64,000 nt of DNA from Spirochaetales bacterium (GTDB lineage Bacteria > Spirochaetota > Spirochaetia > JABEVK01), in NCBI GenBank assembly GCA_037142615.1, contig JBAXAI010000018.1, positions 11,394-75,393 of the forward strand, given 5' to 3'. This document shows positions 14,783 to 22,923 of this stretch, piece by piece. The notes beneath the pieces were generated by a model, which was not told where the DNA came from, made no database searches, and was given only the letters and a program-made list of their open reading frames with translations. The translations under genes were made by a program, and so were the position numbers. Within the stretch, counting starts at the first letter, position 1. Each line of letters starts with the position of its first letter.

Positions 14783-15772
14783 ATGCGCTGGACCGATTTC
14801 CTGGTTCCCTTGTTGGCAGTTTTGACAAGTTTGCCGCCCCTCACCGTGGCGTGGTTGGCCGGCCATAAATCCAAAGACCCCGCCCGTCGGCTGTTTGCCG
14901 GGGGGTTGGCTTTGGTCGCCGCCATCATCTTTCTGGTGAGCACCGGGGTGTTTCTCGACGTGGCCGGGGTCGCCACCGCTACCGGGGCCACCGCGCTCGC
15001 CCCAATCGCGGGGCTGAAGTTCCTGTTCTGGAACCTTACGTTTCTGCTTGCGTTTGGCAGTTTGTTGGTTCTGCGGCATTTTATCACGCGAGTGCTTCCG
15101 GGCCCGCACCGGCGGCCGCTCCTGTTCTGGGTCCTCAGCGCCGTTTTCTACGCGGTCACTCTGGTGCTCGCTTTTGGTGTCACTCCGCCTTTGATCGATT
15201 TCCGAAGCACCACCGCCTCGGTGTTGGGGAGTCTGTACTACCTTGGGGGGATCACTTTGCCTGGTTGGAAAATGTGGCGTCGCCGCCAGGTTCTTCCGAC
15301 CTGGTTCTCGCCTACCGTCGAGTTGCTCGTGCGCATTTTGCTCCCACTGGGAGTGCTCGCGGCGCTGTGGGAGGGACTTCGTTTTTGGAACCCCGCCTGG
15401 CCTGCGGTTTCTGCCATTCCCGTGGTGTTCTTCGTTTTCTTTGCCCTCGTGGGGCTCGAGTTGGTGCGCCGATTCCCCATGGCCAGCGCTTCTGGAAGCC
15501 CGATGGAAAAGGCCGAACGGCTGGCAGCACGTTTCCCTGCACAGAACATCACTGCCCGCGAAAAACAAGTGCTCTCACACCTGCTTGAAGGCCACAAGAA
15601 CACCGAAATAGCCGCAGTCCTGGGCGTGTCGGCGCACACGGTGAAGAATCACATCTACAACCTTTACCAGAAGTTGGGCACCGACACCAGGCTGGAGTTG
15701 CTGGCGCTGGTCATGGACTCGAGCCCTATGGACTCGAGCCCTACGGGCTCTTCGGAAACTCGAGCGAAATGA
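14783..15772 (+). CDS. Membrane-anchored LuxR-family regulator (about 7 TM + C-terminal HTH)
   Basis: Hydrophobic N-terminal region; ITAREKQVL..GHKNTEIA..VSAHTVKNHIYNLYQKL; TG-C-TATAGT 6 nt before the ATG. Confidence 0.85.
   Translation: MRWTDFLVPLLAVLTSLPPLTVAWLAGHKSKDPARRLFAGGLALVAAIIFLVSTGVFLDVAGVATATGATALAPIAGLKFLFWNLTFLLAFGSLLVLRHFITRVLPGPHRRPLLFWVLSAVFYAVTLVLAFGVTPPLIDFRSTTASVLGSLYYLGGITLPGWKMWRRRQVLPTWFSPTVELLVRILLPLGVLAALWEGLRFWNPAWPAVSAIPVVFFVFFALVGLELVRRFPMASASGSPMEKAERLAARFPAQNITAREKQVLSHLLEGHKNTEIAAVLGVSAHTVKNHIYNLYQKLGTDTRLELLALVMDSSPMDSSPTGSSETRAK
15713..15742 (+). repeat. 15-bp perfect tandem duplication (ATGGACTCGAGCCCT x2)
   Basis: Seen directly; encodes MDSSP-MDSSP. Confidence 0.9.
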
Positions 15773-18074
15773 CCTGACCCTTTTCGGGGTTGAAGAGCTT
15801 GATCAGCAAGGTGTTGTCGTTCTCGTACCAGGCCGCGCTGCGGTCGGTGTCGGTGATGCCGAACGAGTCGCCGTACTTGGGAATGACCTTGTTGTCGATC
15901 TTCACCGTCTTGGGATTGTAAACCTTATGGAGCCGAAAGAGGACATAGGGGTCCGAATACCGCATCCGGGGTCCCGAATCGACCACTTCGCTGGAAATTT
16001 CCATCGAGTTGGCCCGGTAACTGAACTGGAAGTCCACCGTGGTGATCAGCCCCCGTTCGTCGTCACGGGTGAGGCCGTCGTCTACCGAGTACCTGCCTTT
16101 TCCGACGCCGCCAGGGTACACGTGGAAGGTCAGGGGGTTGTAGGTCGCCTTGTCGTCGAACACTTCGGCTTCGCGCACAGCCACGAAACCTCCCGCCTTG
16201 GTGAAGACCAGCGGGAAGTCGGGGCTGGTGGGCAAGTCGTAGGCCTGTCCCCCCGAGAACTCCTCGCCGGCCGGGAACTGGAACCAGACTCCCCCGCCCG
16301 GCAAATAGACCTTGCGCGTCGGGTTGCCGTCGACCGCCGGAGCGATAAGCAGATTATCGCCCAAAAGGAACTCGTCGCGGATGGCCCGCACTTTCGGGTC
16401 GCTGGCGTAGCTCCAAAGGAGGGGCCGCAGAGCCGGCACGCCGGTTGGTGCGGCCTGGCGAAGAACTTCCACCATGGTCGGCTTGAGAGTAGAACGGCGG
16501 TCGAGCACGGCTTTGAACAGTTTCTTGTCTTTGTCGGTCAGGCTCAACCACCACGACAGGGGGTCGGGGCCGGCGTCGAGCACGAGGTAGGGGTTGAGCA
16601 GGGCCATCTGCAGGCCCCTCCAGGCCGCCGGAGCCTTGGCAGGATCGGCAAGCGGCCGCACATCAAGCCTGATCAGTGCCGTCCCCAAGCCGGAAAGGCC
16701 AGCCGAGAGCACTTTGTCGAGGGTCAGTTGGTCGTCGACGCCTGCCGTTGCCAAGATTTCGGGCGCGCCCCAGCGCGATGAGCCGGTGAAGCCCGTCTGC
16801 CACGTGTTCCACGGCCGGAAGCTCGGAAAGGCCGCGCGTTGGGCCTCGGCGGCCTTCTGCGCCCCCCAAACCGCAAACGGATTGTTGCTCCGAGCCAAGA
16901 GTGACTTGAGTCCCCGGTCGTCGAAAGTTGTGTCCCAAAGGGCTTCGCCGGGAACGAGAGACGAGGTGTCCACAGCCTGTCCCAGAGCCCAACTCGGCGA
17001 AGGGGACAGACCTACGCTGAAATGGGCCGCTTCGAGGGCCTTTGCCTCGGCCTCGCTGGTGTTGCCTTGGCGAACCTGGCCCACGGAAAGCTTGGCCCTT
17101 CGCAAGAAATCGCCATTGCTCCCGTCGGGCAACACAAACCCTGCCGTGGTCGCCCAGGCTGGGGAGCGGGGAGTACGACCGACCACCGTGGTCAATCCAG
17201 CGATTACCTCGCCGGGGCCTTTCCCGGTCCAAAAGACCAGATCGAGCCCTCCGTTGAGGGTGCCGAAAAAGGCCTTCGCCGGATCGAGCTGAATGTAGCT
17301 TTGGTAGGAGCTATCGATCAGCACCCCGAACGGCGGCGCGGCTCCGGGTCCGTTGGCACCAGCCGCGAGCAGGAAGGGGATGCCCCAAGGTCCACTTTCT
17401 GCGTTGGGTCCCGCCCACAGCTTGACCCACTGGCCTGACTTGTCGAAGCCCTGCGACGGGGGGGAAAGCCCCGCAGTTCCCAGGCCCGTCCAGATCGGCT
17501 GAGCCGCCATCGAAAACTCCTGCTTCAGGCGCTTTTTGAGGAACATCGGACCCGAGGGGGTCTTCCACAGCAGCGTGCCGGCGGAGCGGACCTCGCAAGC
17601 CAGGGTTGCCTTGTCGAGCCTCCACTCCAGGTCGCTTGTGGCCGCAACAAGGTGGGTCGGTGTCTCGCTCACGGTCAGGTCGAACCGGCCTTCGGGCCAA
17701 GTCCGGGGTCCGGGTGACGAAGGCGAAACGTCGTTTGCGGGAGGAAACCACAGCCGGAAGCTCTTCGTGGTCAAAAACTGCACCGAGGCGAGCTTGCCCC
17801 CCTCGAGCGTGAGCCCGAGCCCGTTCCCCTCGCGCGTCCACGAACTCAGCGCCGGAAGCGGAGCCCACGAACCCTCGAGGAACTCGGTCTTGCTCACCAG
17901 GCGGTGGTCGTCGTCGATTTCGGGTGGCTTGGGCGGGGGTGGCAATGGCTCAACCACCTCCGGCACAATCACTGGCTCTACCACTTTGGGCGGAGGCGAA
18001 GCGCACTGCGAAAGCACGAGCTGGAGCGCGAGAAAAGCGGCAAGGAGGGGAAGAACTCGGCGAAGAGACGTCAT
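15741..18074 (-). CDS. GH31-like (alpha-glucosidase fold) lipoprotein, catalytic motifs apparently degenerate
   Basis: Lipobox LSQC + Pro linker; GH31 hallmarks IPF, GGLD, GRTP.SPAWA, GVPALRPL, DEFLLGDNLLIAP, VYLPG, DDG. Confidence 0.75.
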   Translation of the reverse strand: MTSLRRVLPLLAAFLALQLVLSQCASPPPKVVEPVIVPEVVEPLPPPPKPPEIDDDHRLVSKTEFLEGSWAPLPALSSWTREGNGLGLTLEGGKLASVQFLTTKSFRLWFPPANDVSPSSPGPRTWPEGRFDLTVSETPTHLVAATSDLEWRLDKATLACEVRSAGTLLWKTPSGPMFLKKRLKQEFSMAAQPIWTGLGTAGLSPPSQGFDKSGQWVKLWAGPNAESGPWGIPFLLAAGANGPGAAPPFGVLIDSSYQSYIQLDPAKAFFGTLNGGLDLVFWTGKGPGEVIAGLTTVVGRTPRSPAWATTAGFVLPDGSNGDFLRRAKLSVGQVRQGNTSEAEAKALEAAHFSVGLSPSPSWALGQAVDTSSLVPGEALWDTTFDDRGLKSLLARSNNPFAVWGAQKAAEAQRAAFPSFRPWNTWQTGFTGSSRWGAPEILATAGVDDQLTLDKVLSAGLSGLGTALIRLDVRPLADPAKAPAAWRGLQMALLNPYLVLDAGPDPLSWWLSLTDKDKKLFKAVLDRRSTLKPTMVEVLRQAAPTGVPALRPLLWSYASDPKVRAIRDEFLLGDNLLIAPAVDGNPTRKVYLPGGGVWFQFPAGEEFSGGQAYDLPTSPDFPLVFTKAGGFVAVREAEVFDDKATYNPLTFHVYPGGVGKGRYSVDDGLTRDDERGLITTVDFQFSYRANSMEISSEVVDSGPRMRYSDPYVLFRLHKVYNPKTVKIDNKVIPKYGDSFGITDTDRSAAWYENDNTLLIKLFNPEKGQVISLEFPKSP

Positions 18075-18112
18075 ATCTCTTTATCGGAAGGATTTCAGGA
18101 GAGAAATACCGT

Positions 18113-18150
18113 GATATTCTGCCCGATATAGGGCAAATATCTGGGCAAAT
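18113..18150. promoter_or_regulatory. Palindromic operator-like site between the divergent GH31-like gene and the small-ORF/glmS operon
   Basis: GATATT-C-TGCCC-GATATA-GGGCA-AATATC dyad; GGGCAAAT repeated at 18131 and 18143. Confidence 0.6.
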
Positions 18151-18151
18151 C

Positions 18152-18179
18152 TTGAAATCTCCCGAGAAAACGGTAAGAT
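18152..18179 (+). promoter_or_regulatory. Putative promoter of the small ORF-glmS operon (leaderless)
   Basis: TTGAAA-16-TAAGAT-7 nt-ATG(18187). Confidence 0.6.
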
Positions 18180-18186
18180 GCCCTTC

Positions 18187-18462
18187 ATGGAACACGGCGA
18201 GTCGGCGAACGAACGCGGAATCGAAGCCATCAGCCAGACCTACTCGCTCGACCGAGACCTGGTTCGTCGTCTGGACGAAGAGTTCCGCGCGTTGAGTGCC
18301 GAGACGGTAGAACAGTTTGTCGTTCGCCGCCATCAGGAACTCCAGCGGGCCGGTTGGTCGAACGAGGCCATCTACGAGCAACTGCAACGCGAGACCCGCG
18401 GGGGGCGTTTCCGGGCTCGTGAGCTGAGCGTGCGCCAAGTCAGGCGTCTGATTTACGGATAG
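18187..18462 (+). CDS. Small hypothetical protein upstream of glmS, possibly DNA-binding
   Basis: 91 aa, helical, basic C-terminus LSVRQVRRLIYG; ends 10 nt before glmS, whose AGGAG RBS overlaps the stop. Confidence 0.75.
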   Translation: MEHGESANERGIEAISQTYSLDRDLVRRLDEEFRALSAETVEQFVVRRHQELQRAGWSNEAIYEQLQRETRGGRFRARELSVRQVRRLIYG

Positions 18463-18472
18463 GAGACTACTT

Positions 18473-20314
18473 ATGTGTGGAATTGTTGGTTACGTGGGGC
18501 CTCGCAAGGCCGCTGAAGTGCTGTTGCAAGGGCTCAAGATGCTCGAATACCGCGGCTACGACTCGTCGGGTATCGCCTACCTGCACCGCAACGCCATCAA
18601 GGTGTACAAAAAGGAAGGCAAGATTAACAACCTCGAGAGTGTGCTGCCCGAATCGGCCCCCTCGCATTGTGGGCTCGGGCACACCCGCTGGGCAACCCAC
18701 GGCAAGGTGAACGACCTCAACAGTCACCCCCACCTGAGCCAGTCGGGCAAAATTGCCATCGTGCACAACGGCATCATCGACAACTACAACGCGCTCAAGC
18801 ACGAGCTTCAGGCCAAGGGCGTGGTCTTCAAGAGCGAGACCGACAGCGAGGTCATCGCGCATCTGGTGGAGCAATACCTCGACGCCGACACCGCCGCTGG
18901 TCCCGAGGAAGCCGTTCGCAAGACTCTGGCCCGGCTGGTGGGCACCTACGGCATCGTCGTGCTGTTCACCGACTTTCCCGACCTGCTCATCGGCGCCAAG
19001 AACGGCTCGCCGCTGGTGGTAGGGCAGGGCGACGGCGAAATCTTCCTCGCCAGCGACCCGGCCGCGTTTATCGGCTACACGCGCAACGCCGCCTTTTTGG
19101 AAGACCGCGAAATGGTCGTCATCCGCAAGAATGAATGGGTGACCAAGACCTTGGGCAACGTGGTGGTGGCCCGCGAGGCCGAAGCCCTCAACTGGAGCGC
19201 CGAAGCCGCCTCGATGGGCGAGTTTCCCCACTACTTCGTCAAAGAGATTTTTGAGCAGCCCGAGGCCATGCGCCGAGCGCTGGGTCACGGCGGCCGCCTG
19301 ATGCCCGACTTCGGGACCGCCAAGCTCGGCGGCCTCAACCTTGAAAGCCGTGACTTGCTCGACGTGAAGCGCGTGGTGTTCATCGGCATGGGTTCCGCGC
19401 TGCTGGCCAGCCAGGTCGGCGCCTACCTGCTCGAAACCGTGGCCCGGATTCCCGCCACCGCCGAAGACAGCTCCGAGTTCCGTTACCGCAACCCCATCGT
19501 CGAAAAAGATACGCTGTATTTCGCCGTCAGCCAGAGCGGCGAGACCGCTGACACCATCCTCGCGATGCAAGAGATCCAGCAGCGCGGCGGTCGTGTGCTG
19601 GGCATCGTCAACGCCGTTGGCTCCACCATCGCGCGCCTGTGCAAGGGCGGGGTGTACATCCACGCCGGCCCGGAAATCTCGGTGACGAGCAGCAAGGCCT
19701 TCTTGGGCCAGATGGCGGTGATGAATCTGCTCACTGTCCTGTTCGCGCGTATGCACATTTTGAGTTTGGCGCGCGGACGCGAGATCATCGAACACCTGGC
19801 CGCGCTGCCTGCCTTGATGGACATCGCCCTCCAGCAGAGCCCGCACATCCAGAACGTGGCGCGCAAGTACATCCAGCACAAGAACTTCCTGTACATGGGG
19901 CGTGGCATTCAGTTTCCCATCGCGCTCGAAGGCGCGCTCAAGCTCAAGGAGATCAGCTACGTACACGCCGAGGGCTTCAGCTCGGGCGGCCTCAAGCACG
20001 GTCCGCTCGCGCTGGTGAGCCCCGACACCCCCTGCCTGTTTATCATCACCGAGGGCGAAACCTTCGAAAAGGTGCTCGGCAACATGCAGGAGGTGAAGGC
20101 CCGAAATGGGAAGATTATCGCTGTCACCAATAGTAACGACCAGCGCGTCGCTGCCCTCGCTGACGACGTGATCAAGGTCCCACTCACCGAGGAATTGATG
20201 GCGCCCTTCCTGACGCTCATACCTCTCCAGTTGTTCGCGTACTACACGGCCGTTGAACTGGGTGTCGACGTGGACAGGCCGCGCAATCTCGCGAAGTCGG
20301 TGACAACCGAGTGA
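18473..20314 (+). CDS. glmS: Glutamine--fructose-6-phosphate aminotransferase (isomerizing)
   Basis: MCGIVG, LEYRGYDS, GHTRWATHG, SQSGETADT, EGALKLKEISY, PRNLAKSVTTE. Confidence 0.98.
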   Translation: MCGIVGYVGPRKAAEVLLQGLKMLEYRGYDSSGIAYLHRNAIKVYKKEGKINNLESVLPESAPSHCGLGHTRWATHGKVNDLNSHPHLSQSGKIAIVHNGIIDNYNALKHELQAKGVVFKSETDSEVIAHLVEQYLDADTAAGPEEAVRKTLARLVGTYGIVVLFTDFPDLLIGAKNGSPLVVGQGDGEIFLASDPAAFIGYTRNAAFLEDREMVVIRKNEWVTKTLGNVVVAREAEALNWSAEAASMGEFPHYFVKEIFEQPEAMRRALGHGGRLMPDFGTAKLGGLNLESRDLLDVKRVVFIGMGSALLASQVGAYLLETVARIPATAEDSSEFRYRNPIVEKDTLYFAVSQSGETADTILAMQEIQQRGGRVLGIVNAVGSTIARLCKGGVYIHAGPEISVTSSKAFLGQMAVMNLLTVLFARMHILSLARGREIIEHLAALPALMDIALQQSPHIQNVARKYIQHKNFLYMGRGIQFPIALEGALKLKEISYVHAEGFSSGGLKHGPLALVSPDTPCLFIITEGETFEKVLGNMQEVKARNGKIIAVTNSNDQRVAALADDVIKVPLTEELMAPFLTLIPLQLFAYYTAVELGVDVDRPRNLAKSVTTE

Positions 20315-20387
20315 GTGAGATTGCGATGGCGTAAGCCGACCTTGGTCGGCGTCGCCCGGATTCTCGCGAAGTCGGTGACAACCGAGT
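20287..20387 (+). repeat. 26-bp exact direct repeat of the glmS 3' end (20287-20312 and 20362-20387) flanking a hairpin
   Basis: TCTCGCGAAGTCGGTGACAACCGAGT twice, 75 bp apart; GCCGAC-CTTG-GTCGGC at 20335-20350. Confidence 0.95.
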
Positions 20388-20485
20388 AGTTAGCCTTTTA
20401 CCAAGACCTGTGACACGGCCGAACTTTTGGTCTCAAAAATCAAAGTTTGTATGGATTAATTAGGAATAATGGACATAATAGGAGT

Positions 20486-21700
20486 ATGAGTAACGTAGCC
20501 GAACCGTTTGCCCCCTCGGAAGAGGGTGTTTCTGCTCCTTCGAAGTTGCGCTTGCTTCCCCGTCCGGTCGAAGTCGCGCCCGCCGAAGTTCACCCGACCA
20601 ACCAAGGGGTGCTCCCGACCTTCCTGGTGGGCCTTGTCTTCTGCCTCACCGCCATGTTGTGGGACCTGCTGGTTTCGCGGGAGTTTTCCCTGATCCCCAT
20701 CAGTCCGTTCTGCTTTTTGGGCTTCCTGATCGCGGAGTTCCTGCTCACCGAGCGCTGGTTCCGCAAGGCCGATGCGCAAAGTTCAGCGCTGGGCCAAAAG
20801 GTAACCCAAACGGAAGTGGCTCTGCTTGAGGCCGCCGAAGCCTACCGCCGCTTCGTTCCCGAACAGTTCCTTCGCCATCTGGAGCGCCGGTCCATCTCGC
20901 AGGTTCGCCTCGGCGATCAGGTCGCCCTGGGGATGACCGTGATGTTTGCCGACATCCGCAACTACACAGCCATGAGCGAACATCTCACCCCTGAAGAGAA
21001 CTTCTCGCTCCTCAACAGTTACTTTGGCCACATCGGGCCGGTGATCCGCGAACAGTTCGGCTTCGTCGACAAATACATCGGCGACGCTATCATGGCTTTG
21101 TTCGACGGTCCTGTCGATGAAGCGATCGCCGCCGCCGTCGGCATTCAGCTGGCCACCGCAGAGTACAACCGAAGTCGTTCCGACTACGGCCCCGGGCCCA
21201 TCCATATTGGTGTCGGCCTGCACGCCGGTCCGTTGATGCTCGGAGTGATCGGCGAACTCGACCGCATGGAAAGCACCGTCCTCGCCGATGCTGTCAACCT
21301 TGCCAGCCGAATTGAGTCGCTGACAAAGTACTACGATTGCAAGATTCTCCTTACCCGCACAACCTTTGAGGCGCAGACTGACCCGATGCCCTACGAGACC
21401 CGCCCGGTCGACTTGGTACGGGTCAAAGGCCGCAGCCAGGCCGTCGAACTGCTCGAAATCCTGGACGTTCGCTTCGACCCGAGAGCACGACTCAAGATCG
21501 AGCTGGCCGCTCACTTGGCCGAAGCCCTCATTGTCTATCGCAGCGGAGATCTGATCGAAGCCCGGAGTTTGTTCCAGCGCCTGGCCTACCGGGACCCCGA
21601 AGATATTCTGTACGGCATCTACCGGCGTCGTATCGACGAGATGATTCGCATGGGAATCCCCGATGGCTGGACAGGAATCAACGAGTTCGCGTTCAAGTGA
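20486..21700 (+). CDS. Membrane-bound class III adenylate/guanylate cyclase, paralog 1
   Basis: 2 TM; VMFADIRNYT, DKYIGDAIMA, IGVGLHAG, DAVNLASRIE, VRVKGR. Confidence 0.92.
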   Translation: MSNVAEPFAPSEEGVSAPSKLRLLPRPVEVAPAEVHPTNQGVLPTFLVGLVFCLTAMLWDLLVSREFSLIPISPFCFLGFLIAEFLLTERWFRKADAQSSALGQKVTQTEVALLEAAEAYRRFVPEQFLRHLERRSISQVRLGDQVALGMTVMFADIRNYTAMSEHLTPEENFSLLNSYFGHIGPVIREQFGFVDKYIGDAIMALFDGPVDEAIAAAVGIQLATAEYNRSRSDYGPGPIHIGVGLHAGPLMLGVIGELDRMESTVLADAVNLASRIESLTKYYDCKILLTRTTFEAQTDPMPYETRPVDLVRVKGRSQAVELLEILDVRFDPRARLKIELAAHLAEALIVYRSGDLIEARSLFQRLAYRDPEDILYGIYRRRIDEMIRMGIPDGWTGINEFAFK

Positions 21701-22923
21701 GCCGACCCTTCGTCAAGTCGGATCCGCCCACCAGTCTGGAACCCACCATCGGGCACCTTCGTCTTGTGCCTGTCGCCAGTCCACCGGATCCAGAGGTTCT
21801 GAAGGCCGTTGTCACCGCGAGTCAGCGGGCCTTGGCGCCCACCTTTGCGGTGGGCGTCGTGCTCTGCCTGGCGGGCCTGGCGTTCGATCTGTCGCCGTGG
21901 CATAGACTTGTTGCCGTTCCTGTTACGCCGCTGGTGCTTCTGGGCTACCTCGTGGTCGGTTTCGCGCTGGCCCGAAGGTGGTTTCAGCAGGCCGACGTTT
22001 CAACGGTCGAGCTGAACCAAAAGCTCACTGACACGGAACTCGCCCTGATCGAGGCCGCCGACGCCTACAGTCGCTTTTTCCCCGAGCAGTTTCTGCGGCA
22101 CTTCGAGCGCAAGTCGGTCGCGCAGGTACGTCTGGGGGACCAAGTTGCTCGCGGAATGACCGTCATGTTTGCCGACATCCGCAACTTTACCGCCATGAGC
22201 GAAAACTTGACTCCCGAAGAGAACTTCCGGTTCCTAAACGACTACTATGGTCGCATAGGCCCCGTCATACGGGAACAATACGGCTTCATCGACAAATACA
22301 TCGGCGATGCCATCATGGCCCTCTTCGATGGTCCGGTAGACGAAGCTATCGCTGCCGCTGTTGCCATCCAGTTGGCGACCGCCGACTACAACCTGAATCT
22401 CAAGGACCAGCGGTTTGGCCCCATCACGATCGGTGTGGGCTTGCACAGCGGGCCGTTGATGTTGGGTGTGATCGGCGAGATCGACCGGATGGAAAGCACG
22501 GTGATCGCCGACGCCGTGAACCTGGCCAGTCGCATCGAGTCACTGACGAAGTACTACGATTGCCGAATCCTTCTTACCCGCTCGACCTTTGAGGCTCAGT
22601 CGGATCCATTGCCGTACATGACTCGACCGGTTGACTTGGTCCGGGTCAAGGGCCGCCGGGAGTCCGTGGAACTGCTCGAAATCCTCGACGAGCGGTTTGA
22701 CCCGCGGGCTTTCCTCAAAAGGGACCTCGCGGCGCACTTAGCCGAGGCTCTGATCGTGTACCGACGCGGTGAGTTTCAGGAAGCGCGTATCCTGTTTCAG
22801 CGTTTGGCCTATTTGGACCCGCAAGACGTGCTCTACGGGATCTATCGGCGACGAACCGAAGAGATGGTTCGGCTCGGAAAACCCGAAGGCTGGACGGGAA
22901 TCAACGAATTCGCTTTCAAGTGA
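21697..22923 (+). CDS. Membrane-bound class III adenylate/guanylate cyclase, paralog 2
   Basis: Same motifs; GTGA start/stop overlap; identical C-terminus GWTGINEFAFK. Confidence 0.92.
   Translation: MSRPFVKSDPPTSLEPTIGHLRLVPVASPPDPEVLKAVVTASQRALAPTFAVGVVLCLAGLAFDLSPWHRLVAVPVTPLVLLGYLVVGFALARRWFQQADVSTVELNQKLTDTELALIEAADAYSRFFPEQFLRHFERKSVAQVRLGDQVARGMTVMFADIRNFTAMSENLTPEENFRFLNDYYGRIGPVIREQYGFIDKYIGDAIMALFDGPVDEAIAAAVAIQLATADYNLNLKDQRFGPITIGVGLHSGPLMLGVIGEIDRMESTVIADAVNLASRIESLTKYYDCRILLTRSTFEAQSDPLPYMTRPVDLVRVKGRRESVELLEILDERFDPRAFLKRDLAAHLAEALIVYRRGEFQEARILFQRLAYLDPQDVLYGIYRRRTEEMVRLGKPEGWTGINEFAFK

Follow-up and report, generated by a model that had tools for sequence, protein, structure and literature searches.

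A small gene and a conserved dyad upstream of glmS: a candidate regulator-operator pair in spirochaetes, Streptomyces and other bacteria

The window analysed here comprises 64,000 nucleotides (nt) of a Spirochaetales bacterium (assembly GCA_037142615.1, contig JBAXAI010000018.1, positions 11,394 to 75,393 of the forward strand). It carries on the plus strand a small open reading frame (ORF), P0001, coding for 91 amino acids (aa; ATG at 18187 to TAG at 18462), and 10 nt after it glmS (18473-20314), the gene of the 613-aa glutamine-fructose-6-phosphate transaminase. Ahead of both lies a dyad, GATATT-C-TGCCC-GATATA-GGGCA-AATATC (18113-18141), in which A/T-rich symmetric flanks surround a 16-bp core. 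Small gene, dyad and glmS recur as a module in spirochaetes, Actinomycetota (Streptomyces), proteobacteria and several other bacterial groups. Judged from sequence, they most likely constitute a real, widespread and apparently undescribed regulator-operator pair for glmS. Sequence comparison establishes the linkage to glmS, the conservation of the site, its fixed phasing and its retention at a distant glmS. An earlier note on this DNA had suggested, without naming a sign, that the small protein binds the dyad and regulates glmS. Linkage, the presence of the dyad across phyla and the distant site lend support to this proposal, and we consider binding of the dyad and control of glmS by the small protein, be it as activator or as repressor, highly probable.

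Linkage to glmS and conservation of the dyad

Homologs were searched with the small protein alone; the linkage to glmS is therefore an outcome and not an input of the searches. Such a neighbourhood comparison had been suggested in the earlier note. Among relatives every one of the 12 intact homologs is followed by glmS. The same holds for 78 of 80 genome loci (one further case reads through), for 67 of 80 loci from metagenomes (of the rest one is too short and 12 are unlinked), for 28 of the 30 class loci and for all 30 loci from Streptomyces. Within the window's family no glmS exists besides the module-linked one; among distant genomes 33 of 43 list at least two glmS matches. The linked GlmS enzymes retain the catalytic motifs and form two well-supported groups in the tree and not a single one. 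The module decays as a unit: at L221 (G018:C5) the dyad, a broken small gene and a truncated glmS are adjacent, and an intact, dyad-less glmS is located elsewhere in the genome.

The palindrome alone is no proof, because the bare pattern TGCCC-N6-GGGCA, with seven copies in the 4.27-Mb window genome, is no commoner than the same arms with other spacers (3-5 and 7-10 nt; 8-23 copies). It is conservation which lifts the dyad above chance. The operator core of the window, TGCCCGATATAGGGCA (18120-18135), agrees in 13 of 14 positions with the family consensus, TGCCCGAWWTCGGGCA, which spans 16 bp and has A/T-rich symmetric flanks. A matrix derived from the sites of 11 relatives, the window's own excluded, assigns 36.7 bits to the window site and 16.0 bits to the next best position of the genome; the same matrix falls on the dyad in 80 of 80 distant loci. 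Upstream of the small gene at least 12 of the 14 consensus positions are matched in 85 of 92 loci, and a perfect 10/10 core is present in 78 of 92 loci versus 1 of 4100 control windows taken at these loci. After pooling and de-duplication 208 of 216 loci score at least 7 bits, a figure which is partly circular as the matrix contains many of these sites. The exact 16-mer occurs in 17 of 43 distant genomes, each time singly and at the module. The conservation of the dyad upstream of homologs, which the earlier note had proposed to examine, thus extends across phyla, and neither small gene nor dyad was present at 30 other glmS copies (0/30). A second half-site, GGGCAAAT (18143-18150, plus strand), to which the note had also pointed, is present in the window, where it occupies the additional helical turn that this genus has between the dyad and its -35 box; it is not conserved in the aligned upstream regions, and a role for it is not supported.

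Promoter geometry and dyads away from the module

Downstream of the dyad the distances to the promoter come in steps. In 71 of 80 distant loci TTG begins 5-6 nt downstream of the dyad; the gap is 16-17 nt in the four loci of the window's genus and 26-27 nt in three sister-genus loci. A -10-like hexamer follows 16-19 nt further; its first base is C in 59 of 76 loci. In 73 of 92 loci an in-frame start is found 5-9 nt beyond this hexamer. The corresponding elements of the window are TTGAAA (18152-18157) and TAAGAT (18174-18179), both on the plus strand, the latter 16 nt after TTGAAA and 7 nt before the ATG. Because -10 hexamer and in-frame start are only 5-9 nt apart, the transcript is predicted to be leaderless at the module. 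The dyad, upstream of the -35 box, is centred near -50 in most loci, at about -60 in the window's genus (about -59.5 from the predicted start site in the window itself) and at about -71 in the three sister-genus loci, i.e., the positions step by one helical turn. Spacing is less tight in some other genomes of the class, where the best -10 is found anywhere from 22 to 79 nt. CRP and other class I activators act at about -61.5 and -71.5. The promoter geometry favours an activator over a repressor.

A dyad is also found at genes of amino-sugar breakdown. Two genomes of the window's genus have a perfect dyad, with perfect 11-bp arms, 17-18 nt before nagA; in one of them (G004) nagA is followed by nagB. 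No promoter fits between dyad and nagA start codon in these two genomes; therefore the dyad is located in the leader, where binding would repress. The site occurs in 2 of 16 genomes with a nagA match and is absent from the window's genome. By eye, a hairpin with a run of T, resembling a terminator, can be seen in both nagA leaders (L276, L292), where it is situated between the dyad and the probable promoter. The nagA of the window genome (L277, G000:C54) stands beside a divergent GH94 gene, and a different inverted repeat, GGTTAAGT...ACTAACC, overlaps its promoter; this nagA likely has a separate regulator.

A different arrangement prevails in family f57. Here the small gene, carried by 14 of 121 genomes, never has glmS within 1.5 kb. 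It follows amtB-glnK-glnA in the complete genome G443 as well as in a number of metagenome contigs (type III; L148, L153, L260 and related), a context hinting at a tie of glutamine supply to glmS control. In G443 glmS is 450 kb away from the small gene and has a dyad variant upstream. Such a variant is found at glmS in 12 of 12 carriers with a readable glmS start, and its pattern, which was derived from these sites, is matched at glmS in 13 of 14 carriers versus 3 of 107 other f57 genomes. In 11 of 13 f57 glmS promoters with the variant the -10 hexamer lies 50-51 nt downstream. In four carriers the dyad is lost at the small gene and retained at glmS; glmS, and not self-control alone, is therefore the target.

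The variant occupies at the same time the -35/-10 spacer of a gene divergent from glmS, and could have been kept for the sake of that spacer. Yet the divergent gene is present in 100 of 121 f57 genomes, and its dyad goes with glmS. This gene (L325:3479-4816 in G443) is conserved, codes for more than 446 aa, has no Pfam match and is leaderless. Its 30 best loci were read, two of which have no room for a site; a dyad is upstream of the gene in 13 of 13 loci adjoining glmS versus 0 of 15 readable loci without glmS. Several points weigh against regulation of glmS by the small protein in this family. The f57 carriers are kin, and G461 and G522 carry the site at glmS without a detected small gene; in four further non-carriers which were checked, glmS stands in another context and lacks the site.

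The small protein, its proposed action and rival explanations

The small protein family is without a Pfam or NCBIfam model. H49, R83, R87 and Y90 are invariant in all 108 aligned homologs. Structure prediction yields helices at residues 4-19 and 23-37, an N-terminal helix pair which would serve as a dimerisation element, and a three-helix, helix-turn-helix (HTH)-like domain at 41-90. An HTH-like domain, as suspected in the earlier note, is seen in the model, yet with weak fold scores. The C-terminal recognition-type helix, S-x-R-Q-x-R-R-x-x-Y-G, is basic and made up of the most conserved residues (the window protein ends in LSVRQVRRLIYG); R47-R48-H49, N59 and E69 are conserved outside this putative recognition helix. 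NF046112, the MSMEG_6209 N-terminal three-helix bundle dimerisation domain, is matched at residues 23-55 with 18.4 bits (E 0.002), below its cut-off of 25 bits, and by 2 of the 108 members. No relative of the small protein was found in the viral contigs searched.

We propose that the small protein is a transcription factor which recognises a specific DNA sequence and belongs to a family without a name. A dimer, suggested by the dyad and the N-terminal helix pair, would bind the consensus site just upstream of the leaderless promoter and would activate its own gene and glmS, probably via contact with RNA polymerase. The same site in a leader or between -35 and -10, as at nagA-nagB and the f57 divergent gene, would result in repression. 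The logic would be NagC-like: when amino sugars are scarce, synthesis would be on and breakdown off. Binding, dimer formation and activation are what we infer from the comparisons, and that a dimer binds the dyad and activates the promoter of small gene and glmS appears to us probable, with less assurance than control of either sign. Small repressors such as TrpR and MetJ bind a ligand without a separate domain. As a guess, the signal could be an amino-sugar phosphate or uridine diphosphate N-acetylglucosamine (UDP-GlcNAc) in a pocket lined by R47, R48, H49, N59 and E69; alternatively, and equally a guess, it could be a protein partner such as GlmS, which might sequester the regulator. A more far-reaching proposal is tentative, and we would sooner bet against it: a factor of about 90 residues without a sensor domain might read the amino-sugar status directly, with a pocket at the junction of dimer element and HTH or with GlmS as sensor, and switch synthesis on and GlcNAc breakdown off. 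In nearly all Streptomyces it would then be, next to DasR, the second control that has been missing for the amino-sugar flux linked to antibiotic production.

The main rival retains protein and site and reverses the sign, i.e., an autorepressor would block RNA polymerase at the -35/UP region and be released on a signal of amino-sugar shortage. Regulators encoded first in an operon are often autorepressors, the extended site stops 3-4 bp short of the -35 box in most loci, some loci have dyad-like copies in tandem (L136, L140, L183), and negative feedback would require no extra brake. We nevertheless consider an autorepressor rather unlikely. Sites at about -60 and -71 are too distant for simple occlusion, and steps of one helical turn are expected of polymerase contact. 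Further, the position of the nagA site is plainly that of a repressor, and to repress synthesis and breakdown in one and the same state makes less sense. Lastly, glmS of G461, a genome in which no regulator was found, is without a phased -10 and has, by eye, a near-consensus promoter further down.

Could the dyad be read by another, unlinked factor, with the small protein acting instead as a modulator that binds GlmS, in the manner of GlmR/YvcK of B. subtilis, or as a cofactor? Its 91 aa without a sensor domain, the translational coupling of its gene to glmS and the clade-specific surface residues which module-linked GlmS enzymes have in common would be compatible with such a role. We regard it as improbable, because one identical 16-mer has persisted in spirochaetes, Actinomycetota and proteobacteria alike, in precisely those places which have the small gene. 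Moreover, the dyad is still present before the small gene without glmS in 5 of 12 metagenome and 10 of 14 f57 loci, the most conserved residues are those of the basic terminal helix, gene and glmS of G018 decayed together behind the dyad, and no credible fusion of the small protein to GlmS was found. Less probable still is that the palindrome is an RNA hairpin, a leader element or processing site, even though the sequence can be folded into a 6-bp stem with a 4-nt loop and the nagA site with its perfect arms is within the probable transcript. The module dyad is upstream of the -35 box and outside the predicted leaderless transcript, the start of which was measured in S. coelicolor, and Rfam has no match. 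The core is nearly invariant and does not covary. Over 150 distinct sites (pairs -1 to 7) A-C mismatches exceed G-U pairs by 93 to 54, and by 27 to 23 in the six core pairs; as the mismatches are symmetric and not pairing-friendly, the site is probably read at the level of DNA, not RNA. A DNA-binding small protein remains the preferred explanation.

GlmS is the entry step to peptidoglycan and lipopolysaccharide precursors. Its output is controlled by the glmS ribozyme and by GlmY/GlmZ/RapZ. These systems and B. subtilis GlmR/YvcK act on mRNA or enzyme, whereas the module presents a DNA site upstream of a leaderless promoter. Control of GlmS output by GlmY/GlmZ and by YvcK is reported in PMC8964723. 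Among the Pfam and NCBIfam families listed for the 108 members of the small protein family there is no ROK match. NagC of enterobacteria is a large HTH-ROK protein with a sensor domain for N-acetylglucosamine 6-phosphate; the small protein differs by its 91 aa, its operator and a usually single site per genome. NagC activates glmUS and represses nag genes (PMC8964723); the positions of the sites at glmS and nagA-nagB suggest that the small protein may follow a like dual logic, but the nagA site is confined to 2 of 16 genomes. Neither P0001 nor the 108 members have a DeoR match in Pfam or NCBIfam. GlmR of Shewanella and Pseudomonas belongs to the DeoR family and is encoded beside glmS. The likeness is that of a dedicated regulator which binds DNA, as the small protein presumably does; unlike GlmR it has no C-terminal sugar-phosphate domain, and its HTH is C-terminal. 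GlmR is described as a dedicated regulator of amino-sugar synthesis with a predicted site (PMC3223726).

A structural resemblance is seen to Mor/C of phage Mu (PF08765), small activators with N-terminal dimerisation, a C-terminal HTH and a 16-bp dyad beside the -35 region (PMC2582627, 10.1101/2025.05.02.651988). Their helix pattern fits the model of the small protein, with template-modelling (TM) scores of 0.74-0.77 by query over 45-46 residues only, which is below the bar for naming a family. Mor is not among the matches listed in a second structure comparison, and PF08765 is absent from the families matched by P0001 at E 0.1 and from the 25 of 57 alignment matches listed. In contrast to Mor/C, the small protein has no beta-strand linker in its model, its dyad lies near -50, -60 or -71 instead of -43.5, the module promoter retains TTG at -35, and its target is chromosomal and metabolic.

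In Streptomyces 150 of 151 sampled genomes have the small gene, labelled hypothetical, and 30 of 30 loci have the dyad. SCO2788 of S. coelicolor is a 258-nt hypothetical gene 69 nt before glmS2 (SCO2789); its primary start site is at the start codon, it is recorded as a leaderless gene which shares an operon with glmS2, and its ribosome occupancy is 0-6 versus 64-1078 for glmS2 (PMC4895711). In PMC5826349 SCO2788 appears solely as a hypothetical protein, and PMC13170358 has one mention of SCO2789. By size, position and near-universal presence in the genus, without an alignment, SCO2788 is likely a family member. In 5 of 30 Streptomyces loci (L379, L380, L383, L385, L389) the 60 nt preceding the dyad contain boxes resembling the dre pattern of DasR. 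DasR/NagR also affects glmS2, which is up in a dasR mutant (PMC4398421), yet it is of another family (GntR) and reads another site than that of the small protein. Because the dyad is present in all 30 loci, it is a layer separate from DasR; DasR may overlay that of the small protein.

No description of the module was found in the literature covered, which leaves out most subscription journals. Each mode of GlmS control, ribozyme, GlmY/GlmZ, NagC and GlmR, became a field of its own, and the small protein would add a further solution, one that serves the sole glmS of many spirochaetes and glmS2 of Streptomyces. A precise operator, a predicted sign, a phasing rule and a gene in a model organism, SCO2788, make control of glmS2 directly testable, and how so small a protein would sense is a mechanistic question in itself.

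The locus in the window and its neighbours

Dyad, second half-site, promoter hexamers, ORF and glmS are all located where the earlier note had placed them. The stop codon of the small gene overlaps a Shine-Dalgarno-like sequence of glmS, TAGGAG (18460-18465, plus strand). The note was also correct in that a glmS ribozyme is missing: only 10 nt separate the genes, and Rfam reports none in 17500-21000, the single match being CRISPR-DR29 inside glmS (E 7.7). GlmS of the window scores 715.7 bits on TIGR01135 (threshold 418 bits), is the sole copy over the cut-off in its genome and keeps the Cys after the start Met, HTRWATHG, E486, KHGP and K608. At residues 305-309 (about 19385-19400) the canonical CGTSY is replaced by MGSAL in the window and by CGSAY in module-linked GlmS; the change affects phosphate-binding positions and is common to the module-linked GlmS clade.

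On the minus strand, 15741-18074 code for a 777-aa lipoprotein-like protein, which matches a GH31 C-terminal domain and no catalytic domain, possibly a degenerate glycosidase. A box which we take to be sigma-28-like, CCGATAA (pattern (T/A/G)CCGA(T/C)AA; 18081-18088, minus strand), precedes this gene in 8 of 8 family loci. The co-control of this gene by the dyad, considered in the earlier note, found no support, as outside the window's family the divergent neighbour is another gene, and as the gene has its own box 31-102 nt from the dyad in the eight family loci. In three loci of the window's genus this distance is 31-32 nt, and here local interference between dyad and GH31-like promoter may occur.

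The last 31 nt of glmS (20282-20312) are repeated 75 nt downstream (20357-20389); 26 nt are identical, and the second copy ends with TAG. The repeat is absent after glmS in the loci of eight relatives and elsewhere in the window genome. It may be the scar of an element, the 3' end of glmS being the Tn7 attachment region. Directly after glmS, at 20447-22923, follow two similar tandem genes for class III adenylate/guanylate cyclases.
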